Positions 4,467 through 26,235 of a DNA stretch of 26,235 bases are shown here, one piece after another. The first letter of the stretch is position 1; every line of letters begins with the position of its first letter. Position numbers and translations under genes: made by a program. The notes beneath the pieces were generated by a model. It did not search any database, was not told the DNA's origin, and was given only the letters and a program-made list of their open reading frames with translations. The DNA is from a virus (taxonomy: Duplodnaviria; Caudoviricetes): the IMG/VR virus record IMGVR_UViG_3300025718_000137, positions 1-26,235 of that record; one strand, given 5' to 3'.

Positions 4467-4688
4467 ATGCTTATGAACCAGTCGGAACTCAAATTTATTG
4501 CTGCCGAGCTTTTCCGGCTGATGAAGGATGAAGGTCTGACCTTTTCAGGAGGAAGCGTACCCCTGGCCCAGCCGTCGACTAGGCAGCAGAGGATAGATCT
4601 TGAGTATGACCAGGACGTAGCGAAGGCTGTAGCCAGGATGGAAAGAAAGGCGCAGGCGACCAAGTCGTCGGCTCGCGGGCAGCAGTGA
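4467..4688 (+). CDS. Hypothetical protein
   Basis: 73-aa ORF in the dense plus-strand operon. Confidence 0.55.
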   Translation: MLMNQSELKFIAAELFRLMKDEGLTFSGGSVPLAQPSTRQQRIDLEYDQDVAKAVARMERKAQATKSSARGQQ

Positions 4689-4720
4689 CCCTAGGTAGAC
4701 GCATAAAGGGAGGTGTGGTT

Positions 4721-4966
4721 ATGAAAACTTCAGTCCAGGCAGGAGCTGACAAACTTTTGCTCGAAACTATGCAACGCCTTACTACAACCTTGCGCGAAGA
4801 AAAGGACTCAACAACCCGGCTGCAGATTCGTGGCGAAATGCGTGGGATTCGTTCTGCCTTTGTAACTGTTTTTGGCACGGATAACCCCTTTTACCGCGAA
4901 ATAGTCCAGGTAGATACCTCAGCGACAAATTCCGTCTACAAAATTACTCAGCCAGTATCTGGGTAG
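4721..4966 (+). CDS. Hypothetical protein
   Basis: GGAGG RBS before ATG 4721. Confidence 0.6.
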   Translation: MKTSVQAGADKLLLETMQRLTTTLREEKDSTTRLQIRGEMRGIRSAFVTVFGTDNPFYREIVQVDTSATNSVYKITQPVSG

Positions 4967-5030
4967 CAGCAAGGTGGGGAAGGTCGGCGTAACTGGTGGC
5001 TTGTTATTTATTGGTAGGGGGAGGGGAGAT

Positions 5031-5198
5031 ATGAAGAGCTTGCATCTGCTGGCATGGGTCGCTTTGCTTACCATCATTGGGATCGCGGGAGCCACCGCAA
5101 CCTATCTTGCCGTTGGGCCTATAACCGGCCCGTCCAGAGTCAAAATCCCCGAAATACATGGCGCATGTAAATACCAGGCGCTGGCGGTGCTCCGATGA
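5031..5198 (+). CDS. Small membrane protein
   Basis: Purine-rich RBS, one hydrophobic segment, ATGA overlap with the next ORF. Confidence 0.55.
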   Translation: MKSLHLLAWVALLTIIGIAGATATYLAVGPITGPSRVKIPEIHGACKYQALAVLR

Positions 5199-5392
5199 TC
5201 CGGGCGCCTTTCCTCCGCGGCCGGAGAAGTGAGTATCCCGAAATGGATCTTCCTGAAGGCTCGACCTGCGGTGATTGCCACTGGTCAGAGAAGTGCTGCA
5301 CGATTTACGCAAGGATTCCCGAGGACGAGGTCTGCGACTGGGTACCGAGCAGGTTTGTTACCAAGACCGGCACCAGGGCGGTCTGCCAATGA
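5195..5392 (+). CDS. Small Cys-rich protein
   Basis: CGDC...CC...C; ATGA overlaps at both ends. Confidence 0.6.
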   Translation: MIRAPFLRGRRSEYPEMDLPEGSTCGDCHWSEKCCTIYARIPEDEVCDWVPSRFVTKTGTRAVCQ

Positions 5393-5556
5393 CCGAATGC
5401 TCCTGGTGCGGCACCACCCTTACCGGTCTGGATGCGGAAGGCAATGCAAGGCTGTCGAACGGGATCTGCCTCAGTTGCTTGGCTCGCCACTTTCCAGGCA
5501 TCCTTCCCCGGTTCATGGAGGCACGAAAATGCAATGTCAGTGTGGCGGGTGGGTAA
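5389..5556 (+). CDS. Small zinc-finger-like protein
   Basis: MTECSWCG...GICLSC (two CxxC); ATGA-coupled start. Confidence 0.65.
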   Translation: MTECSWCGTTLTGLDAEGNARLSNGICLSCLARHFPGILPRFMEARKCNVSVAGG

Positions 5557-5714
5557 GAGCGGACCTGGTCGAGTTCGCCGGCAAGAAAGTTGTGGGCCTC
5601 GTATGCAACGGCCCCTGCGGCTATGCGGAACCGGTTCCTGATGGAAAGAAAACGAAGGAGGCAGTAATCGACCGCCTCGACGTGGGTCGTGTGGCGATGG
5701 GAAGGGTCTGGTAA
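5529..5714 (+). CDS. Small zinc-ribbon-like protein
   Basis: GGAGG RBS; MQCQCGG...CNGPCG. Confidence 0.6.
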   Translation: MQCQCGGWVRADLVEFAGKKVVGLVCNGPCGYAEPVPDGKKTKEAVIDRLDVGRVAMGRVW

Positions 5715-7210: not shown

Positions 7211-8179
7211 ATGGAAAACATGTCGAACGATGAGTTGAGGCAATTCGTGGAAGCCGAATCGGGCGGGAAGCAGACGGTGCTCTATACCTTCAAGGGGCAG
7301 GCGAGCTTCTTCAACGTTGTCGAGAGATTCAACCTCGAGGATCTGCACCCGTCGCCGGGTACCGGACCGCACCCGGCCTTCGTGGTCAACGGGATCGTCA
7401 AGGATCGCATCTACATCGCGACCTATCAGGCCGTGCTCCGGGATGGCGAGGCCGTATCGCTTCCCAACCAGGACCCGGCAACCAACATCGATTTTGACCA
7501 GGCGCGCACCGCCTGTCTCGCCGCCGGCCCCGGGTTCCACCTCCTGACCAACTGGGAGTGGGCCGCGATCGCGCTCTGGTGTGCCGCCAATGGCCACGAC
7601 GTGCACGGGAACACGAATTGTAGCAAGTCCCATTCTCATCCGGAAGAGAAGGGTGTTCGCGCTGCCCGCAGTTACGTCACGCTGACCGGATCCGGCCCCG
7701 GCTCCTGGCGCCACGATGGCACGGCTTCCGGCATCGCCGACCTGGTGGGGAACGTTTGGGAATGGGTCGATGGGCTCAAGCTTTCGGGTGGAGAGATCAC
7801 CATGGCCCTCGACAATGCGTTTGCTGCAGAAGAAAGCGACTGGACTAAAACCGGAGCAGTAGTAACCGGGACAGACGGCCTGGCTTTAGGCGGGAAAATT
7901 ACCAGGCGCGGATGGTCCAATAAGGCGTTTCGCGAGGTCTCTGCTTCGAACGGCTTTGAAGACGCCAAGTTCCTCAAGCGGGCGGCACTTTTGCCAGTAG
8001 AGGGTGTGAACCTGCCCGGTCATTACTGGGCTGACAATAGTGATGGTTTCGAGGCCTTGCCGATCCGTGGTGGCAACTGGCGCGACGGGTCGGGCGCTGG
8101 TCTCGGCGCCCTCATTCTGAGCGGTGAGCGCTCGTATTCGAGCTCGATCCTCGGCTTTCGGCCCGCTTTTATCGAATAA
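7211..8179 (+). CDS. DGR target protein 1 (CLec/FGE-sulfatase-like fold)
   Basis: LLTNWEW, DLVGNVWEW, RGGNW...LGFRP motifs; C-terminal VR matches TR. Confidence 0.92.
   Translation: MENMSNDELRQFVEAESGGKQTVLYTFKGQASFFNVVERFNLEDLHPSPGTGPHPAFVVNGIVKDRIYIATYQAVLRDGEAVSLPNQDPATNIDFDQARTACLAAGPGFHLLTNWEWAAIALWCAANGHDVHGNTNCSKSHSHPEEKGVRAARSYVTLTGSGPGSWRHDGTASGIADLVGNVWEWVDGLKLSGGEITMALDNAFAAEESDWTKTGAVVTGTDGLALGGKITRRGWSNKAFREVSASNGFEDAKFLKRAALLPVEGVNLPGHYWADNSDGFEALPIRGGNWRDGSGAGLGALILSGERSYSSSILGFRPAFIE
8057..8167 (+). repeat. DGR variable repeat VR1
   Basis: 111 nt ungapped against TR 9625-9735; 14 mismatches, 13 at TR adenines. Confidence 0.95.
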
Positions 8180-8251
8180 TCCGGGGTCTGTTTTTCTGTT
8201 TATCTGAATGGTTTTAACCTCTGCAGCACATATCTGACAAAAGGAGACATC

Positions 8252-9229
8252 ATGACCACGATCATCGTAAAAGACCCCCTCAGAGATTCAGTAGAAGCAG
8301 CGTCAGACGGCAAGCAAACCGTGCGCTGGACAAAGTCCGGACTCCCCAGCTACATGTCTGTTATTCCCAGGGTCAACCTCGAAGACCTGCACCCGACTGC
8401 CCTGGGTTTCGGCCCTCATCCCGCTTTTGTCGTCAATGGAGTCGTAAAGGACCAGATTTTAATCGGGAGTTACCAGGCGGTCCTCCATGACGGGGAAGCA
8501 CTTTCGTTACCCAATCAGCCGCCGACGACCAACATCGATTTCGATTTGGCCCGTGCGGCATGTGCTGCTGCCGGTCCCGGCTTTCACCTGATGACCAATT
8601 GGGAGTGGGCGTTGCTGGCGCTCATGGCTGCAGCAAGCGAACGCGACGTTCGCGGCAACACCGACTGCAGTCGCTCGCATAGCAACCAGGAAGAGTGCGG
8701 TAAAAGGAGCGGCAATAGCAACTTCATCCTGACCGGTTCAGGCCCCGCATCCTGGCGGCACGACGGCACCATGTTCGGCGTCTCCGATTTGGTTGGAAAC
8801 GTCTGGGAGTGGAACGACGGGTTGAAGCTGCTGAACGGCCGGATACTGATGCCGCATGATAATGACTTTACCCTTGCCGAGTCCGAGTGGCCGGAGGCTG
8901 GCGCCTGCATCGATATCATCGGCGGATATCCTCGTGTGTCCGACCAGGTCACTACCAGAGATTGGGACTCGGTGATGTTCAATGAGATGCAGATCAACCC
9001 CGGGTTCGAAGTTCCCATCGCCCTGAGGCAGGCTCTGATTTCGCCAATGACTGATCGCCCTGTGGCCGGTCGTTTTTATGCCGACAATACCGAGGACTTC
9101 GAAGCTATGCCGTTCCGTGGTGGCCACTGGAGCCGCGAGTCGAACGCTGGTCTCGGCGCCCTCGCTCTGAGCGATGAGCGCTCGGCTGCGAACTCGAACC
9201 TCGGCTTTCGGCCCGCTTTTATCGAGTAA
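8252..9229 (+). CDS. DGR target protein 2 (paralog of target 1)
   Basis: LMTNWEW, DLVGNVWEW, RGGHW...LGFRPAFIE; C-terminal VR. Confidence 0.92.
   Translation: MTTIIVKDPLRDSVEAASDGKQTVRWTKSGLPSYMSVIPRVNLEDLHPTALGFGPHPAFVVNGVVKDQILIGSYQAVLHDGEALSLPNQPPTTNIDFDLARAACAAAGPGFHLMTNWEWALLALMAAASERDVRGNTDCSRSHSNQEECGKRSGNSNFILTGSGPASWRHDGTMFGVSDLVGNVWEWNDGLKLLNGRILMPHDNDFTLAESEWPEAGACIDIIGGYPRVSDQVTTRDWDSVMFNEMQINPGFEVPIALRQALISPMTDRPVAGRFYADNTEDFEAMPFRGGHWSRESNAGLGALALSDERSAANSNLGFRPAFIE
9107..9217 (+). repeat. DGR variable repeat VR2
   Basis: 111 nt ungapped against TR; 12 mismatches, 10 at TR adenines. Confidence 0.95.
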
Positions 9230-9276
9230 TCTGAACCCTGTTTTCCTGTTTATCTGATGGTTTTTGAGGTGTTGAG

Positions 9277-9609
9277 TTGGAAAATCTGAAAATAAAGCAG
9301 AAGACGGAAGACATGATCAAGTACGGGTATGTCGCTTTGCAGCAGTTTCCGAAAAGTGAAAAGTTTTCTTCGGTGCAGGACGTCAAGCGAACCATGTTCT
9401 CGTTGCTCGAACAGATAATCCGAGCAAATCGCAGCAGAGACAAGCGTATCGCGCTGTACGCGATCGACACAGAGCTTGAAATTCTTCGTACGCAGGTTCG
9501 CCTAGTGATGGAACTCAAATTCCTTCCTTTCCAGAAATACGAGATATGGAGCGGTCACCTCTCGGAGATCGGGAGGATGCTGGGCGGTTGGATCAAGTCT
9601 TTAAATTAG
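9277..9609 (+). CDS. avd: DGR accessory variability determinant
   Basis: 110 aa, helical, FPKSEKF and EIGRMLGGW motifs; directly upstream of TR. Confidence 0.92.
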   Translation: MENLKIKQKTEDMIKYGYVALQQFPKSEKFSSVQDVKRTMFSLLEQIIRANRSRDKRIALYAIDTELEILRTQVRLVMELKFLPFQKYEIWSGHLSEIGRMLGGWIKSLN

Positions 9610-9624
9610 GGGCAAGGCTGCACA

Positions 9625-9735
9625 ATGCCGATCCGTGGTGGCAACTGGAACAACGAGTCGAACGCTGGTCTCGGCGCCCTCAATCTGAACTATGAGCGCT
9701 CGAATTCGAACTCGAACCTCGGCTTTCGGCCCGCT
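9625..9735 (+). repeat. DGR template repeat (TR)
   Basis: 23 adenines, nine in-frame AAY codons; between avd and RT; diverges from both VRs after CGGCCCGCT. Confidence 0.95.
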
Positions 9736-9889
9736 CTCGCCTGCAGCCGGATAGGGCGCCCTCAAGGGGACGCTTTCAGAGCACAGGCAAAAGGAGCCTT
9801 CTTCCTGTGCATCAAGTAGCACGAATAGGTAGCAACCGCCGCCGGCGGTAAGTATCGCAAAGAGAACATGGCTGGCGACAATTTGAGGA

Positions 9890-10927
9890 ATGACGATGCC
9901 CATCACGCACAACAATATCTGGAAAGACATAACGACCTTCGAAAACCTCTACGTTGCCTATACTTCGGCAGCTCGGAGCAGAAGATATAAGAATTCGGTA
10001 CTTGGCTACCGGCAGCACCTTGAGGAGAACATCATTGATGCCCTCAACCATCTGGCCTGGAAGCAGTGGCACCCATCTCGTTTCAAAGAGTTTTACATTC
10101 ACGACCCGAAACGTCGGCTAATTAGCGCTCCGCCTTTCCATGATCGGGTAGTGCATCACGCCCTGGTCCGGGTGATCGCCCCGCTCTTCGAGTGCAAGTT
10201 CATCGCTGACTCTTTTGCCTGCAGGGCTGATAAGGGAACGCACGCGGCAAAGGAGCGGGTTGAATCCTTCGCTGCAGCCGCTCACACAAAATGGGGCAAG
10301 TACTATGTGCTCAAGGGTGACATCCACGCTTATTTCCACAGCATCAACCGGCGGGCCCTGCTTCGGCTTATCGAGAGGACTATCTCTGATAAGGATGTTT
10401 TGTGGCTGGTCCGGCAGATCGTGAATTGCGATGGCGACGAGCACGGCATCCCGATCGGCGCTTTGACGAGCCAATTGTTTGCCAATGTTTACCTGGACGC
10501 GCTGGACCATTACGTCAAGGACGATCTGGGCGTCAAGCTGTATGCCCGATACATGGACGATTTCGTAGTGGTGCACCGGGATAAGAACTACCTGAAGAAA
10601 TTGCTGGCCGACATCAATACCTTCATTACGACCCGGCTTCACCTGACGCTAAATCCGAAGACCGAGATCTTCAAGTCGGGGGTTGGCGAGTGCCATGCAA
10701 TCGACTTTTGCGGGTACCGCATCTGGCCTGATCACACTAAGCCGAGGAAGCGAACCGTTAAGTGTGCCCGGAAGCGACTCAAGAAGCTCTCTGTGCTTTA
10801 TCGGGAAGGGGCAATCCGATTGTCGAGGGTAAGCGCCAGTATTGCCAGTTTTGCGGGCTATATGAAACATTGCAGCGGAGTAGTAACAACAGAGTCCGTA
10901 TTGGGTGGGATCGTTTTTACGCGGTGA
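9890..10927 (+). CDS. DGR reverse transcriptase
   Basis: PKRRLISAPPFHDRVVHHA, GIPIGALTSQLFANVYL (DGR-type SQ), YARYMDDF, IDFCGY; 345 aa. Confidence 0.96.
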   Translation: MTMPITHNNIWKDITTFENLYVAYTSAARSRRYKNSVLGYRQHLEENIIDALNHLAWKQWHPSRFKEFYIHDPKRRLISAPPFHDRVVHHALVRVIAPLFECKFIADSFACRADKGTHAAKERVESFAAAAHTKWGKYYVLKGDIHAYFHSINRRALLRLIERTISDKDVLWLVRQIVNCDGDEHGIPIGALTSQLFANVYLDALDHYVKDDLGVKLYARYMDDFVVVHRDKNYLKKLLADINTFITTRLHLTLNPKTEIFKSGVGECHAIDFCGYRIWPDHTKPRKRTVKCARKRLKKLSVLYREGAIRLSRVSASIASFAGYMKHCSGVVTTESVLGGIVFTR

Positions 10928-12282: not shown

Positions 12283-12696
12283 ATGTCTGAGGATGCGGGG
12301 TTAAGGTTGTTCGGGATGGAGGCGGCTGCACGGTCCTTCGGTTTTGACATGATCAAGTACGACGACTGCGCGATGTGGGTGGTTTCCGAGTTGCACCCCG
12401 AAGGCGCAAAGTGTCCCCATTGCTCCGAGCCTGTCGCGCCTAGCGCCCAGGGGCGCTACTTCCGCCTCGAGCAGATCCGCTGTGTCAAGCCCGGATGCAA
12501 GAAGAAGTTCACGGCCGCCACCGGCACGCTGCTCAACGGCAGCAAACTGGAGGTTCGGGAAATTTATCTGCTCGCGGTCCTCTCCTTTCGGGGGGTCTCC
12601 ATCCCTCAGATCGCCGACGTGCTGAAGTGCCACGTCGACACGGTCACCAGTTGGCAGAATCATTTCAAGGCACACCGGGAGCAAGCGAGTGCCTGA
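12283..12696 (+). CDS. Zn-ribbon + HTH protein resembling the IS1595 transposase N-terminus (no DDE domain)
   Basis: GGAGG RBS; HPEGAKCPHC...RCVKPGCKKKFTAATGTLLNGSKL...GVSIPQIADVLKCHVDTV. Confidence 0.7.
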   Translation: MSEDAGLRLFGMEAAARSFGFDMIKYDDCAMWVVSELHPEGAKCPHCSEPVAPSAQGRYFRLEQIRCVKPGCKKKFTAATGTLLNGSKLEVREIYLLAVLSFRGVSIPQIADVLKCHVDTVTSWQNHFKAHREQASA

Positions 12697-14560
12697 TTCT
12701 GTAGTGCCTTCAGGGAACATAGCGGACATCCGCGCGCAGGTAGAAGCACAGATCCGCGAGGAGGGCGAACACTTCCCCGCTCCGATCGTAGTACCTGCGA
12801 CTCCTATTATCGACTCGGAGCGGATCATGCTCTGCCTCAACAGCAATGAGCGCGGGGACGGCATCCTCTATGCGGACCTGCTGCGCGATAAATTTATTTA
12901 CGTGAAGTCCACCGAGAAATGGCTTGAGTGGCTCGGGCACCACTGGGGGATCGACAAGAGCCACAAGTACCTGCGCGCCGTCGAAGACGTCGCTATGACG
13001 TACCTGAACGAGGCCATAGCACTAGAGCAACCTATCACGCGCACCACCGAGGCCCTGACCGCCGCCAACCTGGAAGTCACCGCCGCCAAGGAGCGCGTCA
13101 AGGCCGCCAAGGAAGCTGCCAACGCTCCCGCACTCTACCAGGCAGACCTCGAAGCCAAAGCCGCTGCTTCCGAAGCAAGCCGGCTCGCCTTTGAACTCGC
13201 CATTCTCGGCAAGAAAAAGAAGAAGCTGATGGCGCGTGTCGACCGTCTTCGCGGCCTGATTGGAGCCAAGAGCTGTGCCACCTGGTCGCACGTAGTCGAG
13301 CCGGCCATGTACGTAATAGGGGAGGAGCTCGACCAGCGCCCCTGGCTCCTGGCCTGCGAGAACGGGGTCATCGACCTGCAGCTTGCCGAACTCCTCCCCG
13401 GGCGACCCTCCGACCTGCTCGTGAAGAATGTCCCGGTCCCCTACCTTGGCATCGATACTCCGTGCCCGGAATGGGAAAAGCTCCTGGGGTCGAGCCTCCC
13501 TGATCCCGAGATTAGGCTCTTCGTCCAGCGGCTCTTCGGGTACGCCATCACCGGATTCTGCCACGAGCAGATTCTCGCCTGCTTCATCGGTGAGGGGTCT
13601 AACGGAAAGGGAATCATCTTTGAAACCATCCAGGCGATCATGAGCGAGCTTTGCTGGCGGATCCTTCCCGAGATGATCCTGGAGCAGAAGACTCCGCGTA
13701 CTTCCGGCAGCGTCTCCAGCGATATCGTCGCCCTGCGCGGCCGGCGCATCATCATCGCCTCGGAGACTGACGAGCACACGCGGATCTCCGCATCCAAGGT
13801 CAAGGGACTCGCGTCCGAGGACACCATGAACGCCCGCGGCCTCTTCGTCGAGGAGACCAACTTCGGTCCGACTCATACCATGTTCATCCAGTCCAACTAT
13901 ATCCCCCACGGCCTGACAGCAGACCTCGCCCTGCGCCGGCGCCTGGTGATCATCCCATTCCTCTACAGCTTCGTTTCCGATATCGCCGCCGAGGAGGCCA
14001 AGACTCCCAGCCGCATCGGATTCTTCAAGCCGAAAGACGACAAGCTCATGGAGAACCTAAAAAAGGAGTACTCCGGCATCCTGTCCTGGTTGGTGCGCGG
14101 CTGCGTCATGTGGCAGCAGATGGGCCTGGCTCCCCCTAAACAGATAACCGCCAACATCGAGGACCACCGGGTCTCCGAGGACTATCTGGAGCAGTTCCTG
14201 AACTCCCACTGTCTGCGGCCCTACAATCCCCTCAAGACTTATAACCAGGGCGATATGTCGCAGGTCGGAGATGACCAGTACGTCTGCGATAAAGATAAGT
14301 GCCTTGATAAAGATCCCGTTACTTCACCGGACCAATGGCGATACATCGGGTCGGGCGTCACGAGCGAGGAGTGGATCCCCTTCAAGGAGTTCCGGGTGCT
14401 CTACCAAAGTTGGTTTGTGGAGCGCATCTCCGAGGGCAAGAAATATCTCCCAACCGCTCAGAAGATCGGCAAGAGCCTGCGTGAAAAGGGGTACGTCACC
14501 GGGGAGCGGGGCGGGCAGAACCGCCTCTACGGGGTCCGGATAATCAACCGGGAGGTATGA
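12689..14560 (+). CDS. D5/P4-family SF3 helicase
   Basis: LLACENGVIDL, Walker A GEGSNGKG, IIIASE, IQSNY, RRRLVIIPF. Confidence 0.92.
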   Translation: MPDSVVPSGNIADIRAQVEAQIREEGEHFPAPIVVPATPIIDSERIMLCLNSNERGDGILYADLLRDKFIYVKSTEKWLEWLGHHWGIDKSHKYLRAVEDVAMTYLNEAIALEQPITRTTEALTAANLEVTAAKERVKAAKEAANAPALYQADLEAKAAASEASRLAFELAILGKKKKKLMARVDRLRGLIGAKSCATWSHVVEPAMYVIGEELDQRPWLLACENGVIDLQLAELLPGRPSDLLVKNVPVPYLGIDTPCPEWEKLLGSSLPDPEIRLFVQRLFGYAITGFCHEQILACFIGEGSNGKGIIFETIQAIMSELCWRILPEMILEQKTPRTSGSVSSDIVALRGRRIIIASETDEHTRISASKVKGLASEDTMNARGLFVEETNFGPTHTMFIQSNYIPHGLTADLALRRRLVIIPFLYSFVSDIAAEEAKTPSRIGFFKPKDDKLMENLKKEYSGILSWLVRGCVMWQQMGLAPPKQITANIEDHRVSEDYLEQFLNSHCLRPYNPLKTYNQGDMSQVGDDQYVCDKDKCLDKDPVTSPDQWRYIGSGVTSEEWIPFKEFRVLYQSWFVERISEGKKYLPTAQKIGKSLREKGYVTGERGGQNRLYGVRIINREV

Positions 14561-14609: not shown

Positions 14610-14925
14610 ATGACTAAATCATCAGAGTCATTTAGTCATAAAGTAGTCATAAAATGCAAACCATCGGGATTAATAGGGAATACCCGCATTTTATGACTAC
14701 ATGACTAAATGACTACACCCGCGCACACGTAAGGATTTTTATTTCACATACGGGGCGGGTTCCTATGGCGACAGCCTAAAACCTTTTTTACTATTTTTGA
14801 GCAAATATATAAAAATTAGTCATTTAGTCATAAATAGTAACATTTCAGAAAAAAAGAATAAAGATTTCACTTAGTTTACTGGCATGACTAATTTCATGAC
14901 TACTGAATGACAAAATATTAGTCAT
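14610..14925. repeat. Putative replication origin with ATGACTA iterons
   Basis: 11 perfect ATGACTA/TAGTCAT copies plus 2 with one mismatch, both orientations, AT-rich, between helicase and primase. Confidence 0.85.
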
Positions 14926-14943
14926 GGAGAAGGGGGGACCGGC

Positions 14944-18206: not shown

Positions 18207-18788
18207 ATGGTTACAAGGTGGGAACAGTTTTTAAACGAGACGGTGAGCGACGCCGGGAAGATCCTTGAGCTTCAAGAGTTCTTCGGGGTTTGTTTGGCCA
18301 ATGAAGGCAGAGCAGGGAAAGCGCTTGTTTTGTCCGGAGCAGGGAGTAACGGCAAAACCGTGATGGTCGAAATATTGCGGGACCTTGTCGGCGAAGCATT
18401 GGTCTCATTCGTAGATATCGAAAGCGCTTGCCCTTTCGGTTTGTCGCCCCTCGTCGGGAAGAGGCTGAACATATCGGAAATTTTGGAGTTCGGACCCCTG
18501 GTTAAATCAGTAGTCGACGGCGATGTGATACTCATTGAGCGGAAATATAAAGAGCCGGTTGAGTATTTGCCTAATTGCAATCTCGTTTATATGACCAATC
18601 CCTTACCGACGATTTTGGATAGGGACGCTGAATTGGCCAGCCGTCTACTGATTATAAGCATGGCAAGGGTATTTGTTGGTTCAGACCGGGACCCGGTGCT
18701 TTTAGATAAACTCCGTGCTAATTTTCACGAGATCGTCAGTTGGTCGCTTATTGGATTGGACAGGTGGCGGGATCGTCATAGGGCCTAA
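18207..18788 (+). CDS. Stand-alone D5-like SF3 ATPase domain
   Basis: GAGSNGKT, LVGKRLNISE, IERKYK, MTN, SRLLII; 193 aa. Confidence 0.8.
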   Translation: MVTRWEQFLNETVSDAGKILELQEFFGVCLANEGRAGKALVLSGAGSNGKTVMVEILRDLVGEALVSFVDIESACPFGLSPLVGKRLNISEILEFGPLVKSVVDGDVILIERKYKEPVEYLPNCNLVYMTNPLPTILDRDAELASRLLIISMARVFVGSDRDPVLLDKLRANFHEIVSWSLIGLDRWRDRHRA

Positions 18789-18833
18789 TGGTTTTTGGCT
18801 GTACCGGCTTGCGGTACGAGCACCTGATCAGGT
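18783..18833 (-). other. Decayed attC-like site A0
   Basis: Plus strand GCCTAAT-8nt-GCTGTAC-9nt-GTACGAGC-5nt-ATCAGGT: L boxes and spacing intact, both core triplets mutated. Confidence 0.6.
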
Positions 18834-18857
18834 GCATAACTCAGAAGGAGATTGAAA

Positions 18858-19100
18858 ATGGTCCAGCTCGGCAAAAAGTACAAAGACAAAATCACGGGTT
18901 TTGAGGGTATCGCCACCGGTACCGTGCAGTACATCAGCGGCTGCAACCAGGCGTTGCTCGCGCCTGCAGTCGGTGCGGACGGAGCGTTGAAGGATTCCCA
19001 GTGGCTTGACGAGCAGCGCCTGCAGCCTGTGGAGGGAGAAACCATCACTCTTGACAACGGCGAGAACCCCGGCTTCGATTGCGCTGCTCCGAAGAGGTAA
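18858..19100 (+). CDS. Phage hypothetical protein
   Basis: AGGAG RBS; LGKKYKDKITGFEGIATG...GCNQ...WLDEQRL. Confidence 0.75.
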   Translation: MVQLGKKYKDKITGFEGIATGTVQYISGCNQALLAPAVGADGALKDSQWLDEQRLQPVEGETITLDNGENPGFDCAAPKR

Positions 19101-19149
19101 TCGAATCCCTGGAAAGCGAAACTTGCAGCAATAAAAAGGAGAATAAAGC

Positions 19150-19356
19150 ATGTCGTATTCAGTCAACATCCCCTGCGGTACCTGCACCAAAAAGAAAGAA
19201 GGCTGCACTGATGGCGTAGTAGTCACCGGAGCAGTCCAGGGCATTATTCACCAGATGCCGTTCAATACCGGTCACCTTGGGTCTGGCTCTGTGACTTTGA
19301 GCTGCCAGAACTTCACCGCACCGCCTGAAGGCAACAACTCCGCCAGCGTCCAGTAG
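19150..19356 (+). CDS. Small Cys-rich protein
   Basis: AGGAG RBS; PCGTC...C...C. Confidence 0.65.
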   Translation: MSYSVNIPCGTCTKKKEGCTDGVVVTGAVQGIIHQMPFNTGHLGSGSVTLSCQNFTAPPEGNNSASVQ

Positions 19357-19400
19357 GAAACGGAAGGCGGGTAACTTTTCCTTGGCTGGAGAGGTTGCCC

Positions 19401-19429
19401 GCCTAACGGTTTAGATCTGGCCGCGTAAC
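19401..19429 (-). other. attC-like half site A
   Basis: GCCTAACGGTTTAGATCTGGCCGCGTAAC; 19404-19429 matches 23740-23765 at 24/26; partner arm not found. Confidence 0.55.
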
Positions 19430-19485
19430 GAAAACGCAAAAGCTGCCATACGCTGGCCGCTAAAACCCGCAGAAACCGTGAGCTT

Positions 19486-19746
19486 ATGACACCCGAAAAG
19501 CTAAAAACCATACGGAAAACGTGGAATTATTCCCAACCTGAATTTGCCGAGCTACTGGGAACCCGCCTGCGCACCTACCAGGATTGGGAAATAGGCAAGG
19601 GCCGGATACCACCCATCATAAGCCTCACCCTAGTTTTACTCCGCGAGCGCGACCAGCGGATCACCCGGGAGATACTTGACCAGGCTGCAGCGCGCATAAC
19701 AGAAGAGTACCCGGCGGGAATACAGAACGCAGCCGAGGACATCTAA
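19486..19746 (+). CDS. XRE HTH protein (antitoxin-like, orphan)
   Basis: MTPEKLKTIRKTWNYSQPEFAELLGTRLRTYQDWEIG. Confidence 0.85.
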   Translation: MTPEKLKTIRKTWNYSQPEFAELLGTRLRTYQDWEIGKGRIPPIISLTLVLLRERDQRITREILDQAAARITEEYPAGIQNAAEDI

Positions 19747-19758
19747 GCGGAGGGTAGA

Positions 19759-19956
19759 ATGGGTCAGCACTATACGCGCAATACTAAGTCGGTCTCGGTT
19801 TACTGCTCCATCTGCCGGCGCAATACTATTCATCGGGTTGACGATCGGCGGCTCGGCCCATGTACCGAACATGGAGTATCCCTCCTATCCAAAGAGCAGG
19901 AGAAGCGCCAAAAGTCGCAAGAACGGGAAGAGAAGAACCCCAAATTACCCTTTTGA
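19759..19956 (+). CDS. Small zinc-ribbon-like protein
   Basis: GGAGG RBS; YCSICRRNTIH...PCTEH; paralog at 26172. Confidence 0.75.
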   Translation: MGQHYTRNTKSVSVYCSICRRNTIHRVDDRRLGPCTEHGVSLLSKEQEKRQKSQEREEKNPKLPF

Positions 19957-20626: not shown

Positions 20627-21195
20627 CAACCCCTGCGACCTTCACTCCCAAGCAGACCTATAAAAACTGCGCCGAGGCCTACCGCCTTTTCTTCCTGGCG
20701 CAGGGTATCGGCGTGGGGCAGACCAAGTTCTACAACGACGCAGCGCGCCTGCACCTGGTTAACCAGGACAAGACGCTGAACCTGTCGAGCCTGCTGGCCT
20801 ACGTTAAGGAAGAGCTCAAGATCGAGGCGACCACTGGTCGGAGCATCGTGGAGCGGGACCAGTCGCAACGTAAGGACGACCTGGAGATCAGAGAGCGGGA
20901 ACTGAAGATCGCCAAGCTGGAGCGCGAAGGGCGGAAGGACGACAGGGATTGGATCAGGCGCGACACCGTGAACGAGCGCGAGGGCGCCCTGGTCGGCACC
21001 ATCATGTCGGAAGCGAAGTATCGGCTGTCGCGGGCGGTCCCCGAACTGATAGTCCTCTGCAAAGGCGACGTGCAGCGCGCGGCAGATGTTACCGACCACC
21101 TGGACAAGGCGCTCTACCTGGCGTTCAAGAGTATCTACGATTCCGCCGAGATCGATATCGCCTTCGCCGAAGTCGACGCCGAGGATGAACTATGA
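20623..21195 (+). CDS. Putative terminase small subunit
   Basis: 190 aa, ATGA-coupled to terL; central coiled coil LEIRERELKIAKLERE; call is mainly positional. Confidence 0.65.
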   Translation: MTTPATFTPKQTYKNCAEAYRLFFLAQGIGVGQTKFYNDAARLHLVNQDKTLNLSSLLAYVKEELKIEATTGRSIVERDQSQRKDDLEIRERELKIAKLEREGRKDDRDWIRRDTVNEREGALVGTIMSEAKYRLSRAVPELIVLCKGDVQRAADVTDHLDKALYLAFKSIYDSAEIDIAFAEVDAEDEL

Positions 21196-23123
21196 CGCAA
21201 CCCCTGCTTGCAGACAGCCTGGTAATCCGGCCGCTTCCCGACTTCCTGCCGGCGCGGGTCAGGCACGCCTGCGCAGGGCGACGCATCTCTTTCCAGATTC
21301 CGGCCAGCGTGCGGGAGCGCATGCAGGTCCCCGAGGATATCGACGCCGCAGACTGGGCGGACAAGTACCGTCGCGTCACCGCCATCGATGCGCACCCTGG
21401 CCGCTGGCGTAATGAGCTGGTCCCGCATGCGGTCAAAGCAATGCGCCTTGCCAGTACCCCCCATGTACGTCAACTCTGGCTCTGCTGGCCGGAACGCGCC
21501 GCGAAGACCAATGTAGTTTTGAACGCCGTCATGCGCCAGCTGGACCGGGGCATCGACTCGGGCAACGTCTTCTGGCTCATGCCCAACGAGCACGAGGCGA
21601 AGAAGGCCATCGGCGAGCGAGTCATCGAGGCGCTGAAGGCGACCCCGCGCACCGCCCGGCTGCTGTCGCGCTACGCAGACGATACCACGCGCACCATCAT
21701 CCGTTTTCGCCACGGCCCCCGGCTCTTTGCCGCCTGGGCCGGGAGCGCGGCGAGCGTTTCCTCCTTCTTCGGCAAGCTCTGTGTTTTCGACGAGTGCGAC
21801 AAGGCCGAGCTCTCCGGAGTCGGCAAAGAGACCGACATCCTGACCCTGTTTTTCAAGCGCGGTCGCGACCGGGATGACAGCAAGTTCATTATCGTCTCTA
21901 CCCCGGCACAGGGGTACGTATGGAAAGGAACTATGGGGTGCGAGCAGGTATTCCAGTACCAGTCCCACTGCCCCCATTGCGAACAGTACGTTTCCCCCGG
22001 GTCCGACCAGGTGATCATCCCGGACGGCGCCACTGCCGAGGACATAGCTCATGGGCAGGTCCCGGTGCACATCGTCTGCCCCTCCTGCAAGGTGCCCTGG
22101 ACCGATCAGGCGCGCGCGGCCGCCTATGCTGACGGCGAATGGATCATCATCAAGGGTATCGGCATCGACAACCCGGCTACGGTGGGGATGCACATCACGG
22201 CCTACGTGCTCCCCAACATCCCGCTGCGAGAGATCGCGGAGAAGATCATTCTGGCACGCGACGGCGGAAGCACCGAGAAGAAGGCGCTCGCCAACGGTTA
22301 CGACTGCAAGGATTACGTGCCCGAGCAGGCCGGCGCGCTGAAAGACGATCATCTGCTCAAGTTCCGCTCCGAGCTCGCCCGCAACCTGGTACCACCGGAT
22401 ACCGCGCAGGTTGGCATTACCGTGGATACCCAGCAGGCGAGCTTCTATTACCAGGTCTGGGCGATGGGCTACGCTCCGGCTGTGGAGCTCCACATGATGC
22501 GTCATGGGATAGTAGATTCATTCGAGGACGTTGAGGGACTCCTCGAGCGTTCCTTCCTGGACCATGAAGGCCGCAAGTTTAAGATCACGGCAGGGATCAT
22601 CGACTCCGGCGGTACCCGCCGCGGTTGGCAAAAGCACAGCCGAACTCATGAGGTCTACGAGTGGTGTGCAGCGCACCGGATAATGACTCCGCACAAGGGG
22701 ATCCCCGGCCGCGCCGGCGAGATGATCAGCTACAAGCAGGTATCCACTTTCCCGGGGAGCAACAAGCCGATCCCGGGTGGGCTGAAAAGGGCCAACATCC
22801 GGGTCGACATCTTCAAGGACGACTTGGAGGGGCGCCTCGCCAAGGAGCCGGACGACCCCAAGGCGCTCAGCTTCCACAGCAAGATAGATGAGGGGTTTGC
22901 CAAGCACTTCACATCCGAGACTAAGGACGAATCGGGCGACTGGACACACGACAGGAAAAAGGGACGCAATGACCATTTTGACTGCACCGTCATGGCGCTG
23001 GCCTTGCGAGAGATGAGGAAACTAAGGATCCCGAAGAAGCCGGGCGCCCAAGTACAAGCGCAGGCGCAGTCGCAACCAGCAGCACACCGATCAGGCGGGT
23101 TCGTCAGCGGGTGGAAACGATAA
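21192..23123 (+). CDS. Terminase large subunit, GpA family
   Basis: WADKYR...GRW, VFDECD, VSTP, CPHC/CPSC, TVDTQ, IDSGG, NDHFDC. Confidence 0.93.
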   Translation: MTQPLLADSLVIRPLPDFLPARVRHACAGRRISFQIPASVRERMQVPEDIDAADWADKYRRVTAIDAHPGRWRNELVPHAVKAMRLASTPHVRQLWLCWPERAAKTNVVLNAVMRQLDRGIDSGNVFWLMPNEHEAKKAIGERVIEALKATPRTARLLSRYADDTTRTIIRFRHGPRLFAAWAGSAASVSSFFGKLCVFDECDKAELSGVGKETDILTLFFKRGRDRDDSKFIIVSTPAQGYVWKGTMGCEQVFQYQSHCPHCEQYVSPGSDQVIIPDGATAEDIAHGQVPVHIVCPSCKVPWTDQARAAAYADGEWIIIKGIGIDNPATVGMHITAYVLPNIPLREIAEKIILARDGGSTEKKALANGYDCKDYVPEQAGALKDDHLLKFRSELARNLVPPDTAQVGITVDTQQASFYYQVWAMGYAPAVELHMMRHGIVDSFEDVEGLLERSFLDHEGRKFKITAGIIDSGGTRRGWQKHSRTHEVYEWCAAHRIMTPHKGIPGRAGEMISYKQVSTFPGSNKPIPGGLKRANIRVDIFKDDLEGRLAKEPDDPKALSFHSKIDEGFAKHFTSETKDESGDWTHDRKKGRNDHFDCTVMALALREMRKLRIPKKPGAQVQAQAQSQPAAHRSGGFVSGWKR

Positions 23124-23147
23124 GCAATGCAATGTAATGGAGGGAGT

Positions 23148-23372
23148 ATGGCGGGCAAGCGTTACATGAGTCCCAGTGAAGTAGCCGAGAAATTCGGAGT
23201 TACCCCCCGCACCGTGCGCCGCTGGTGGCAAAGCGGCAAAACCTGCCTCAAGGCCTGGCACCCCCACCACTCCCTGGGACTACGCGGCCTCCGCTTCACC
23301 CTGGAATCCGTCGAGGAATACGCACTCTCCGGGCAGGTCCGCCCAGATGACTGTGATGAAGCCAATTTTTAA
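23148..23372 (+). CDS. MerR/excisionase-like HTH protein
   Basis: YMSPSEVAEKFGVTPRTVRRW...GLRF. Confidence 0.8.
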   Translation: MAGKRYMSPSEVAEKFGVTPRTVRRWWQSGKTCLKAWHPHHSLGLRGLRFTLESVEEYALSGQVRPDDCDEANF

Positions 23373-23390
23373 GCGTCCTAAGGAGATGAC

Positions 23391-23732
23391 ATGACCCAAC
23401 CCAGTGAAACCATCAAGGCAGCAGATGTCCACGATCTCGAGATTAAGCCAATAGCTGTCACCGAAACTGAAACTCGTCATATGGCAAGTTTCGCTATTTC
23501 CCCAACGCTGCTTGAGCAGGTTTTAGAAATTCCCGCCGGCCACGAGATAGTCGGAGCAAAATGGGATTTTGCTTCCCGGACTGTGCGCCTTTTCCTGGAA
23601 GGGCCTGATTTACCCGAGATCGAGAGGGGGCAGCTTGTTCCATCAATCTGTCCGATCGTGCGATATTACATCGACGATGAAGGAAAGCGGCATCACGTAT
23701 GGGACTGGAATAACTCTGGATCAAACAAGTAA
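23391..23732 (+). CDS. Hypothetical protein
   Basis: AGGAG RBS; 113 aa. Confidence 0.7.
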   Translation: MTQPSETIKAADVHDLEIKPIAVTETETRHMASFAISPTLLEQVLEIPAGHEIVGAKWDFASRTVRLFLEGPDLPEIERGQLVPSICPIVRYYIDDEGKRHHVWDWNNSGSNK

Positions 23733-23736
23733 AGGT

Positions 23737-23785
23737 ATATAACGGTTTAGAGCTGGCCGCGTAGCAGACCAGCGATTGGTTGGAA
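23737..23785 (-). other. attC-like site B (49 bp)
   Basis: Minus strand: TTCCAAC-CAATC-GCTGGTCT-GCTACGC-GGCCAGC-TCTAAACC-GTTATAT. Confidence 0.7.
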
Positions 23786-23813
23786 CGCGATTAACTACAA
23801 AAGGGGCATAGCA

Positions 23814-24596
23814 ATGGAAATAGCCGTACTTTACCACAACGATGCAGACGGATTCGGGGCCGCTTACGCCTGTTGGAAATCTCTCTACGAGAGAGCCATG
23901 TACATTCCTGTCCAGTACGGGCAGCCGGTGCCGGAACTGCCGGAGACGGTCAAGGACCTGATCATTGTTGATTTTTCGTATGATCGGGCAATGTGTGAGA
24001 CCCTGGCGGGGAAATACAAGCTCACCATCCTGGACCACCACAAGACTGCTGAAAAAGAACTGGAAGGACTCCCGTACGCGAAGTTCGATTTGAACAAGTC
24101 TGGCGCTGTACTGGCATGGGAAATGATGTATCCGCTCTGGACCCCCCCGGTGATTCTGCAATATGTCCAGGACCGGGACCTGTGGCGCTTTGGCCTGCCC
24201 AATTCGGAGGAAGTGAACCTGTATATCGCTTCTCTCCCTCAAACATTCCTGGCATGGGATGGTTTCGACTTGGAAGCGGCTGAGATCGGCGGGGCGGCAA
24301 TCAAAGCGTTCCGTGATTCGCAGATTGAGCGAGCCTGCCGGAATGTCCGATGGGGGAACATCGGAGAGCATAGGGTGCCGATACTTAACCTCTCTGACAA
24401 CATTTCGGAGGTCGGCAACCATCTGTGCCAAAAGTACCCGGATGCTGCTTTCAGCGCGTCTTACTGCGACCGTGCAGACGGTAAGCGGTCGTATTCACTT
24501 CGGTCAATCGGAGAGTTTGACGTGTCGGTTATCGCAAAACAGTTTGGTGGCGGTGGACATCGTAACGCAGCCGGATTCACAAAGTGCGCTGACTGA
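23814..24596 (+). CDS. DHH/DHHA1 phosphoesterase
   Basis: YHNDADG, IVDFS, LDHHKT, QDRDLW, SLRS, GGGGHRNAAG. Confidence 0.92.
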   Translation: MEIAVLYHNDADGFGAAYACWKSLYERAMYIPVQYGQPVPELPETVKDLIIVDFSYDRAMCETLAGKYKLTILDHHKTAEKELEGLPYAKFDLNKSGAVLAWEMMYPLWTPPVILQYVQDRDLWRFGLPNSEEVNLYIASLPQTFLAWDGFDLEAAEIGGAAIKAFRDSQIERACRNVRWGNIGEHRVPILNLSDNISEVGNHLCQKYPDAAFSASYCDRADGKRSYSLRSIGEFDVSVIAKQFGGGGHRNAAGFTKCAD

Positions 24597-24599
24597 GCG

Positions 24600-24645
24600 G
24601 TACAACGGTTTTCGAGCTGCGCGAAGCACCAGCGAGGGGTTATGG
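24600..24645 (-). other. attC-like site C (46 bp)
   Basis: Minus strand: CCATAAC-CCCTC-GCTGGTGC-TTC-GCGCAGC-TCGAAAACC-GTTGTAC. Confidence 0.7.
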
Positions 24646-25151
24646 CAAAGCAAACAGCTAAACAAAAATCGAATGATCCTTCCCCGTATTATGGCCCGAT
24701 TGAGCGGGTAGACGGCGTTCGTCCCTTCAACGGGTATTTGTGGAATACGGAAGATTGGTGGGCTAATCGGGAGGTACATCACAGCATCGGTTACCGACAC
24801 ATGATTGGCATCGTGGCCCTAGCTGACGGCCGGTTTTCAGTTGAAGGTTTCGTTCACGCCATTGAAAAGAACGAATACGCAGGCAAGCCTGTTGTTTTTG
24901 CCACTCGGACGGCAGCGATCCGTGTAGCAGCTGCGCGTGCGATCCGGCTGGCTAGATGGTCGCGAAAATGGAAAGGCAGTATGGACCAACTGGAGGGCAA
25001 GAGGCTCGCGGACGTGATTAACTGGGCCAGAAACACGGTAGCGCGGGAAACCGGTAAGCCTGAACCAAAGCCGGTACAGGTGAAAGAGCCACCCCCGCCG
25101 TTCCGTCCGACTGGCCTGCCACTGTTCGACTTTGGCCAGGTGAAGTCATGA
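24642..25151 (+). CDS. Hypothetical protein
   Basis: 169 aa; ATG lies inside the core box of site C; ATGA-coupled to the next ORF. Confidence 0.7.
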   Translation: MAKQTAKQKSNDPSPYYGPIERVDGVRPFNGYLWNTEDWWANREVHHSIGYRHMIGIVALADGRFSVEGFVHAIEKNEYAGKPVVFATRTAAIRVAAARAIRLARWSRKWKGSMDQLEGKRLADVINWARNTVARETGKPEPKPVQVKEPPPPFRPTGLPLFDFGQVKS

Positions 25152-25378
25152 GCCGCTGCCCGAGAGATAACGACCCTGACTTGATCCATGTCAGCTACAG
25201 ATCGGCAAGTAATCGGGCGACTCGACTCCTTCTCTTGGAACTAGTCGCGGAACAATTCCTGAAGGAACATCAAGAAATGAAGAATTTTACCGCTGGTTTT
25301 GGTCCGAAAGCGGAGTGCGACTGTCCCTGGTGCGAAAAGGGACGTGAGGCATTTCGGCTGAAATCACGACCGGCATAA
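25148..25378 (+). CDS. Hypothetical protein with CxCxxC motif
   Basis: ECDCPWC; TAA lies inside the core box of site D. Confidence 0.65.
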   Translation: MSRCPRDNDPDLIHVSYRSASNRATRLLLLELVAEQFLKEHQEMKNFTAGFGPKAECDCPWCEKGREAFRLKSRPA

Positions 25379-25425
25379 CGGTTTCAAGCTGTGCGGGGCT
25401 TGCCCGCACGAGCGCCTTGTTAGGC
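25373..25425 (-). other. attC-like site D (53 bp)
   Basis: Minus strand: GCCTAAC-AAGGC-GCTCGTGC-GGGCAAGCCCC-GCACAGC-TTGAAACC-GTTATGC. Confidence 0.8.
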
Positions 25426-25456
25426 GCATTACACTGGTAGGTCAAAGGAGAAGGGC

Positions 25457-25738
25457 ATGCATTACAAAAACGGAAGAGAAGCGAAGAATGGCGACAAGGT
25501 TATGTTGATATCGTCCTACGGGCCGCCGGTTGTCGGCATCCTGTACGACGCCGTAGCGGGTAACGACTACTGCAACGGCAAGATAGCGCCGGTATTGCCG
25601 AATGACCCGTGCCCGAACCTGAAGGAGTGCCTGCACCTGGATGACGTGTTGGCAGTTGTGGCGAACGTTCCCGATGCACAGCCCCCTATCGACAACGCGC
25701 ACGTGGCGGAAGGCTGCGAGCAGTTCTCCGCACAGTAA
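25457..25738 (+). CDS. Hypothetical protein
   Basis: AGGAG RBS; MHYKNGREAKNGDKV...CNG...CLHLDD. Confidence 0.75.
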   Translation: MHYKNGREAKNGDKVMLISSYGPPVVGILYDAVAGNDYCNGKIAPVLPNDPCPNLKECLHLDDVLAVVANVPDAQPPIDNAHVAEGCEQFSAQ

Positions 25739-25802
25739 CAACCTACCGGGCGGTGGGGCCCCGCTGGCCTCGCCGCCTAACTACGGATGAAAGGAGTCTA
25801 CC

Positions 25803-26111
25803 TTGAAAACCGGTATTGAGTTGATTGCCGAGGAAAGACAGCAGCAGATTAAGAAAGGTCGAACGCTTGAACACGATGATCAACATAAGGACGGGACCCT
25901 GGTCGTCATAGCAGCGGCCCTTGCATGCGACGGCACCGATGCATGGGTAGAAGATCCTGAAGGTCGTGGTACTGAGGGCGATCCGTGGGGGCTCATTAAA
26001 AAATATGGCTACCGTAATGGCGGAGACGAGATTCATATCCTGGCAGTTGCTGGCGCCTTGATCGCGGCTGAAATTGACCGGATGCAGCGTTGTCAGGGCC
26101 AGTCCGCATAA
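25803..26111 (+). CDS. Phage hypothetical protein
   Basis: AGGAG RBS, TTG start; GIELIAEERQQQI...EHDDQH...AGALIAAEIDR; TAA lies inside the core box of site E. Confidence 0.8.
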   Translation: MKTGIELIAEERQQQIKKGRTLEHDDQHKDGTLVVIAAALACDGTDAWVEDPEGRGTEGDPWGLIKKYGYRNGGDEIHILAVAGALIAAEIDRMQRCQGQSA

Positions 26112-26153
26112 CGGTTTTGAGCTGGCCCGAAAGGGCCGAGCGCCTGGTTAAAC
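26106..26153 (-). other. attC-like site E (48 bp)
   Basis: Minus strand: GTTTAAC-CAGGC-GCTCGGCC-CTTTCG-GGCCAGC-TCAAAACC-GTTATGC. Confidence 0.8.
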
Positions 26154-26171
26154 TGACGGGCTAAGGGAGGA

Positions 26172-26235
26172 ATGGTGAGCCAGCACTACACGCGCAATAC
26201 CAAATCAGTGTCAGTCTACTGCTCTACATGCCGGC
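26172..26235 (+). CDS. 5' part of a paralog of the 19759-19956 protein
   Basis: GGAGG RBS; MVSQHYTRNTKSVSVYCSTCR; truncated by the window edge. Confidence 0.75.
   Translation, partial: MVSQHYTRNTKSVSVYCSTCR

Follow-up and report, generated by a model that had tools for sequence, protein, structure and literature searches.

Can a phage keep an integron of its own, and in which direction do its cassettes then read? The usual view is that integrons belong to bacteria and are only now and then carried by phages, and that strand choice and the promoter Pc set the orientation of their cassettes. The question is raised by the right end of IMGVR_UViG_3300025718_000137, a virus record of 26,235 nt taken in its entirety (hereafter the window), in which four short hairpin elements lie between small genes. 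We conclude that the window holds a real cluster of attC sites lacking integron integrase (CALIN), with a probable attI beyond its right end, and that the cluster is part of a phage-resident integron variant with inverted cassettes. Very probably, the array represents the cassettes of a phage-resident integron whose intI was likely lost; its sites are of attC type, its genes are inverted relative to the bacterial norm, and its cassettes are likely moved by an IntI acting in trans. A preliminary description of this DNA had proposed an attC-type cassette system with inverted genes and phage cargo, and site structure, natural breakpoints, and intI-bearing relatives all support that proposal.

Structure of the four sites

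All four elements lie where the preliminary description had placed them, each with its attC top strand on the minus strand: site B (23737-23785, 49 bp), site C (24600-24645, 46 bp), site D (25373-25425, 53 bp), and site E (26106-26153, 48 bp). Their predicted crossovers fall between 23742 and 23743, 24605 and 24606, 25378 and 25379, and 26111 and 26112, respectively. Reading C, D, and E along the minus strand gives, in order, AAC, 5 nt, an 8-nt box with an unpaired fourth base, a centre, a 7-nt box complementary to the first, a spacer, and GTT. The centre measures 3, 11, and 6 nt and the spacer 9, 8, and 8 nt, respectively. The boxes pair without mismatch in D and E and with one G-T pair in C, and the predicted DNA folds of D and E have energies of -14.2 and -8.3 kcal/mol. 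In these two folds the extrahelical base is an unpaired G on the plus strand; in C it is identified by pattern only. The R''-L''-L'-R' boxes with AAC/GTT triplets and an extrahelical fourth base, originally claimed for all four elements, therefore hold strictly for C, D, and E, but only loosely for B, in which L-box pairing is imperfect and the predicted minus-strand fold places the bulge at the sixth base.

Such sites are not expected by chance. A strict scan of 23373-26235 found three sites on the minus strand and none on the plus strand, whereas none of 300 dinucleotide shuffles gave two sites on one strand (282 had no site and 18 had one). A sequence pattern that matched B, D, and E had no match over 100 shuffles. 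Site D is also 86% identical across 72 nt to the first site of an array in a Geobacter prophage (L125/G001). A cluster counts as a CALIN when it has two or more attC sites and no intI beside it (the threshold of two is from PMC9024848); the window has four such sites, and no intI was found in it.

We compared the window sites with chromosomal integrons of the family to which Geobacter sp. UBA9976 (G006) belongs, hereafter the host family, in which 39 of 87 genomes encode an IntI above the profile cut-off. The stretches 5' of intI, scanned at L137 and at 40 of 54 listed places, gave 82 sites with the usual polarity relative to intI and 4 with the opposite one; one hairpin site in a chromosomal integron (L137 12975-13030) was assigned to neither polarity. 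After overlap removal, the 80 remaining sites had a median length of 62 bp. The window sites had been described as unusually short, and they do fall below published attC length ranges, which begin at 56-57 bp (PMC5371416), but the claim is weaker than it first appeared, as 8 of the 80 host sites are 55 bp or less and the shortest is 49 bp. The long L'-R' spacer had likewise been thought unusual. However, spacers of 8-10 nt occur in 35 of the 80 host sites, which rules out long spacers as a peculiarity of phages. The window sites are short, yet short sites and long spacers are both present in the host family.

A covariance-model check had also been suggested earlier. A rough model built from 48 of 61 non-redundant chromosomal host sites, with the structure supplied by hand, returned 16 hits in the window, with D (28 bits, E 2.8e-5), B (18.8 bits), and E (17.5 bits) at ranks 1-3 and C (10.7 bits) at rank 6. 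All four hits were on the minus strand.

Integrases and attI-like sites of related phages

Which enzyme would work these sites? The window's own phage integrase, a tyrosine recombinase (244-1287, minus strand), scored 87.5 bits on the TIGR02249 profile (cut-off 265) and is without the insertion near patch III that is described as the IntI hallmark (10.1101/030866). The missing insertion had been noted earlier, and by profile this protein is rejected as the cassette enzyme. By contrast, three relatives encode proteins above the cut-off (L078, 374 bits; L146, 414 bits; L178, 307 bits), all with the IntI-specific insertion. The viral contig L078 has an array of inverted cassettes; to its right comes an attI-like site and then intI, which reads in the direction of the cassette genes. 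L146 and L178 came from intI matches in the host family and were identified as prophages; both have the order TerS-like gene, inverted cassettes, attI-like site, intI, TerL, and portal. At a further locus (L138 11733-12070, genome G007), an attI-like site is succeeded by an internally deleted intI, of which only the parts for the N and C termini are left, and TerL comes next.

The window itself ends within its last cassette, and L119 is, judging by gene order, its likely continuation. In L119, cassette E is followed by a box alignable to the attI region of L146, and beyond it come a gap rich in hairpins and the head genes. The other right neighbour of cassette E also opens with an attI-like box. 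Both boxes lie beyond the window and are assigned by resemblance. Only 4 of 41 intI loci gave candidates with a simple attI pattern, and attI sites are therefore called from where they lie and what they resemble. A related box lies inside the window: a site at 25775-25793 (minus strand) has a core box, 5 nt, and a weak second box but no hairpin, and its resemblance to the attI-like sites suggests that it may be attI-derived. Hairpin-less internal sites of this kind, each followed by a ribosome-binding site and a gene, occur at L120 3702, L116 (reversed) 15418, and window 25775; the internal sites of L120 and G001 are similar to the one at 25775.

The preliminary description had expected an IntI in trans or further to the right. 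Relatives do have intI at that end, but none was found in the 6,042 nt of L119. The complete prophage G001 also has no intI, although its host, one of the 39 family genomes noted above, has one on another contig. These absences lend some weight to the idea that the cassette boundaries are real but are worked by a tyrosine recombinase other than IntI (Xer-like, from phage or host). So does G004 (L117 8555-9514), which has no IntI above the cut-off; upstream of its inverted array lie a 319-aa Xer-like gene, at a distance of about 500 nt, and a small helix-turn-helix (HTH) gene. However, the G004 gene lies on the side opposite the attI-like end and in a single array, whereas in three relatives an attI-like site immediately precedes the gene for an IntI above the cut-off, and the attC sites have the usual polarity relative to intI. 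Across viral intI loci, 46 sites upstream of intI have this usual polarity and 10 the opposite one. We therefore regard a non-IntI enzyme as unlikely, and IntI as the likely cassette enzyme.

An unrooted FastTree phylogeny of 111 IntI sequences, which does not show a single origin, placed IntI from inverted-layout loci on several branches, apart from the main host clade (31 rows) and close to a second host group (7). Many of the loci L275-L346 have IntI-like genes with no detectable attC nearby, and several of these form branches of their own. No site was found near the IntI-like gene (4650-5648) of L351, a GenBank virus. Among viral contigs, a narrow site pattern matched none and a looser one matched 62, mostly other site types or chance; a clean bulged stem was present in four of the 62 (L008, L018, and the duplicate pair L046/L056).

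Orientation of cassette genes

In the usual cassette layout, the gene lies on the attC top strand and ends before R''. The window departs from this, as had been claimed: the genes flanking the sites are all on the plus strand, which is the attC bottom strand. Genes and sites even overlap, with the stop codons of 25148-25378 and 25803-26111 inside R' boxes and the start codon of 24642 inside the R'' box of C.

This layout predominates among the scored sites beside viral intI. Alignment to IntI gave 229 viral stretches, of which the best 80 were used; removal of 8 duplicates left 72 loci. Orientation was scored from the gene starts and stops adjoining each site, and sites in one locus are not independent. 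On this score, the 39 sites beside viral intI (in 26 of the 72 loci) comprised 27 inverted, 2 canonical, and 10 tied. The 77 host sites gave the reverse picture, with 56 canonical, 6 inverted, and 15 tied. Among related phage loci, 10 of 11 were scorable, and their 30 sites comprised 23 inverted, 0 canonical, and 7 tied. Counted per locus, the ratio of inverted to canonical was 20:1 in viruses (5 tied) and 1:22 in hosts (3 tied), and all 20 inverted-class records exceed the TIGR02249 cut-off. In hosts, a cruder longest-ORF (open reading frame) test found 6 inverted and 30 canonical among 36 cassettes. The inverted-integrase type known from Treponema is ruled out for these loci by the same polarity count of 46 against 10, as the viral sites keep the usual polarity to intI.

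Cassette exchange at the predicted crossover points

The absence of site-bounded gene gain or loss among relatives had been named beforehand as grounds for rejecting a cassette system. Such gain or loss was found in two cases, a 717-nt cassette E and the DHH phosphoesterase cassettes of L067-L072.

For cassette E, we analyzed repeats in the contigs of one run, X1, possibly the window's own source. These contigs fork at window position 26109, the start of a 721-nt piece with a depth of 104.7. On its left it joins both a 25,970-nt piece belonging to the window and another of 6,805 nt (depths 50.3 and 51.6), and on its right two pieces of 22,318 and 2,896 nt (depths 48.9 and 47.0). The last 127 nt of the window are the exact start of L119 (reversed) and the exact end of L120. 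As seen in L119, the repeat extends between two successive TAAC motifs, the first of them that of site E, which equals 717 nt between predicted cuts plus four shared core bases. Its right end is the C of the next AAC, so both ends are predicted crossover triplets. At the left, the duplicate shares only TAAC with its flanks, too short for homologous exchange, and its perfect identity indicates a recent event. In the second case, a homolog of the DHH cassette (about 60% aa identity) in L067, L068, L070, and L072 keeps hairpin and gene while the neighbours switch at AAC on both sides. IntI is reported to cut the AAC of R' on the attC bottom strand (PMC5027507), and in these genomic data cassette E and the DHH cassette of L067-L072 each have natural breakpoints at that triplet on either side.

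These breakpoints mean that a cassette here begins with its hairpin, continues with the gene, and ends at the next AA. In agreement, R'' and R' pair better between a cassette's own ends than between the halves of one site. This was true in the window (25/28 vs. 19/28) and, at variable positions, in related phages (70/84 vs. 49/84) and host integrons (101/140 vs. 66/140).

One could instead regard the array as a fossil, once made of IntI cassettes and now rearranged by homologous or illegitimate recombination between phages at conserved linkers. No intI is nearby; B, a half-site termed A, and a further site at 18.8 kb are decayed; and hairpin B is unlike the hairpins of homologous cassettes. 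Yet the exact and recent 721-nt duplicate, with only TAAC shared at the left and its right end on the C of AAC, argues against this. Replicative IntI recombination predicts such duplicates, and cassette duplication has been proposed to follow from replicative resolution by IntI (PMC3458562). A fossil array thus seems quite improbable to us. Least probable is that the hairpins act mainly on RNA, as processing, stabilizing, or translation signals before each gene: they do lie on the gene-sense strand just 5' of ribosome-binding sites, and D and E fold as DNA with the energies given above, but this would leave unexplained the AAC breakpoints, the pairing of boxes 400-860 nt apart, and the adjacency to intI and attI, and searches found no terminator-like match at the four sites and no Rfam match in the window. 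A secondary role for the hairpins in RNA is conceivable.

Several observations weigh against a working phage integron. The duplicate is known from one run, perhaps the window's source, and the contigs are compatible with either right neighbour as the window's own. Site B shows the fourth-base bulge only if one mismatch and one wobble are allowed and was missed by strict scans, C had a weak model score (E 1.1), and the host-trained model fails on most short sites of related phages. Signs of decay in B and in the 18.8-kb array suggest that some of the array may no longer be active. Homology of the DHH cassette to L078 and L178 begins at R'', and hairpin B is not kept with the gene. Gene 25457 of cassette D had no upstream site in any of 64 distinct homologs (the best 80 of 168 loci, minus duplicates), so it is not generally a cassette. 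Finally, 46 of the 72 viral intI loci had no classifiable site, and in viral intI loci the longest-ORF test found 8 inverted and 6 canonical cassettes.

A model for phage-resident cassettes

We propose that the gene-sense (plus) strand would serve as the attC bottom strand, which would fold when single-stranded, with IntI cutting it in the R' triplet AAC. The arrangement in relatives and the position of cassette E next to the right-end attI-like site suggest that this site would receive new cassettes. The window's phage would rely on IntI from its host or from a co-resident element. Cassettes would be read from upstream phage promoters. In the complete relatives, TerS, cassettes, attI, intI, and TerL are on one strand, so a phage transcript would span cassettes and integrase without a Pc. 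A scan for the sigma-70 consensus found none in window 23000-26235 or in L119 4900-6042, although such a scan cannot exclude a promoter. An AT-rich stretch at 14610-14930, with short repeats in both orientations, lies between two primase-like genes and to the left of both arrays, and is a likely replication origin. A fork moving rightward from it would place the recombining strand on the lagging-strand template, which is reported to favour attC folding (PMC5371416).

For a broader proposal, we consider the case evenly balanced. Temperate phages may keep complete integrons of their own, with several IntI lineages and their own attI in the replication-to-packaging operon and a separate pool of inverted phage-gene cassettes. 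The inversion would let cassettes be read with the phage transcript and place the recombining strand on the lagging-strand template, tying shuffling to phage replication. Co-resident prophages would trade cassettes by copying, and the arrays would be a birthplace of new cassettes. Phage mosaicism would gain a site-specific route from a phage-resident form that has integrases of its own, genes of opposite polarity, and a cassette copied exactly from one element to another. It would also bear on the origin of cassettes, since gene 25457, site-less in 64 of 64 distinct homologs, is found here in a cassette whose ends pair at 7 of 7 positions. With the integrase, the attI-like site, and 46-53 bp attC sequences in hand, the variant is directly assayable.

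Relation to known integrons

Phage CALINs are already known. Qi et al. 2023 (PMC9892861) report 17 phage CALINs, three complete integrons, and one In0, and found recombination by IntI1 with attI1 for 5 of the 6 phage attC sites that they assayed. Like the window, their CALINs are attC clusters without intI in phage genomes. That study describes the arrays of TJE1 and PH101 as typical, and on our reading the TJE1 genes lie on the attC top strand. The complete integrons it reports are interpreted there as having been captured by phage from hosts or plasmids. In the present case, by contrast, genes are inverted, cargo is phage-like, and the intI of relatives lies inside the phage operon. No account of phage integrons whose cassettes are systematically inverted came up in the literature searched, which left out most subscription journals.

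The chromosomal integrons of the host family share with the window attC architecture, L'-R' spacers of 8-10 nt, and sites down to 49 bp, and they share their attC-to-intI polarity (82 vs. 4 sites) with viral intI loci. They differ in having canonical genes (30 of 36 cassettes; 56 vs. 6 sites). In the inverted-integrase or "reverse" integrons described from Treponema (10.1101/030866, 10.1101/2025.02.12.637893), intI and cassette genes run in the same direction, as in the phage loci. However, Treponema intI is flipped relative to attC, whereas in the phage loci the genes are flipped relative to both intI and attC. The Delta-attI-type cassettes of class 1 and 2 integrons (PMC12901181) use an attI remnant as a cassette boundary, much as may be the case at 25775. 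Those are resistance cassettes in mobile integrons, and the phage site is likened to them by resemblance only.

Cassettes and their cargo

To the left of the array, a 113-aa gene (23391-23732, plus strand) ends 4 nt before B. It has no site upstream, so it may be flank or an old cassette, and it had no homolog in the loci fetched. Cassette B (23743-24605, plus strand) consists of hairpin B and the DHH phosphoesterase gene (23814-24596). Its homologs occur in the IntI-bearing phages L078 (74-80% nt identity, gene frameshifted) and L178 (72% nt identity) and in L067-L072. Flanks were inspected for 18 of 33 DHH loci; six were site-bounded (L067-L070, L072, and L078, with L068 and L069 identical) and 12 had no site. 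Cassette C (24606-25378, plus strand), whose own ends pair at 6 of 7 positions, carries the overlapping genes 24642-25151 and 25148-25378. The second has a homolog in L178, while gene 24642 had no relatives and no confident Atlas family. Cassette D (25379-25780, plus strand), the one with 7/7 pairing noted above, carries gene 25457-25738, a common phage hypothetical. It is followed by a 102-aa gene (25803-26111, plus strand), which has its stop codon in the R' box of E and homologs in the viral intI loci L270 and L320. The last 127 nt of the window (26109-26235, plus strand) open the 721-nt exact repeat, which comprises cassette E and the shared core bases; the full cassette holds three small genes, with the first ATG at 26172, and its own ends pair at 7 of 7 positions.

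Overall, the cargo looks phage-derived. Within the host family, array DNA matched 2 of 87 genomes, in both cases inside prophages, and homologs of gene 25457 are site-less; the first result bears out the phage-like cargo noted earlier. A search of 50,697 GenBank phage records with the array gave no match.

In L078 (3506-3967 and 5780-5910) and L138 (10917-11116), site arms are split by a long loop. The L078 loop holds a 140-aa ORF, and here a gene appears to sit within the hairpin loop rather than between sites. The Geobacter prophage array contains a tRNA-like sequence, seen by eye (L125 10110-9985, minus strand).

A second, decayed array

A second array (18783-19956) is located between a primase-like fragment and TerS. 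It includes a D-like site identified by eye (18783-18833, minus strand), which is decayed, with both conserved triplets altered, and half-site A (19401-19427, minus strand), identical to the left arm of B at 23 of 24 nt. Its genes are 18852-19100, 19150-19356, and 19759-19956, the last being a paralog (71% aa identity) of the first gene of cassette E. Intact arrays lie 3' of primase genes in L018 and L120. An Aca2/YdiL-like HTH gene (19486-19746; Pfam PF08965, 25.5 bits) lies within the decayed array, and the genes adjoining it might be anti-CRISPR candidates.

Phage context and likely host

Besides the integrase, the window encodes a CI-like repressor, two primase-like genes, and a methyltransferase. 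TerL (21192-23123) is followed directly by an excisionase-like HTH gene (23127-23372, plus strand), the left flank of the array, and then by the small accessory genes. In L001, a relative with a 71% identical TerL, the HTH gene leads to head genes with nothing in between, indicating that the accessory block of the window is an insertion at that point. TerL as query found three viral relatives and no match in genome contigs. A prophage in Geobacter sp. UBA9976 (L102, L125, G001) has an array at the equivalent place with the D-like site described above, and a Geobacter-like host is therefore likely for the window's phage. A search of the window for tRNA genes found none. In L119, the ORF at 2420-2890, between the portal and head protease genes, is presumably ferritin-like.

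A 193-aa fragment (18207-18788), directly after the methyltransferase gene, belongs to the same primase/helicase families as 12689-14560. A diversity-generating retroelement (7211-10927) sits among the early genes, with target genes at 7211-8179 and 8252-9229, Avd at 9277-9609, and a reverse transcriptase at 9890-10927. A connection of this reverse transcriptase with the cassettes was considered and set aside, as nothing spoke for or against it. Its template repeat, at about 9625-9735, is 88-89% identical to both target genes.

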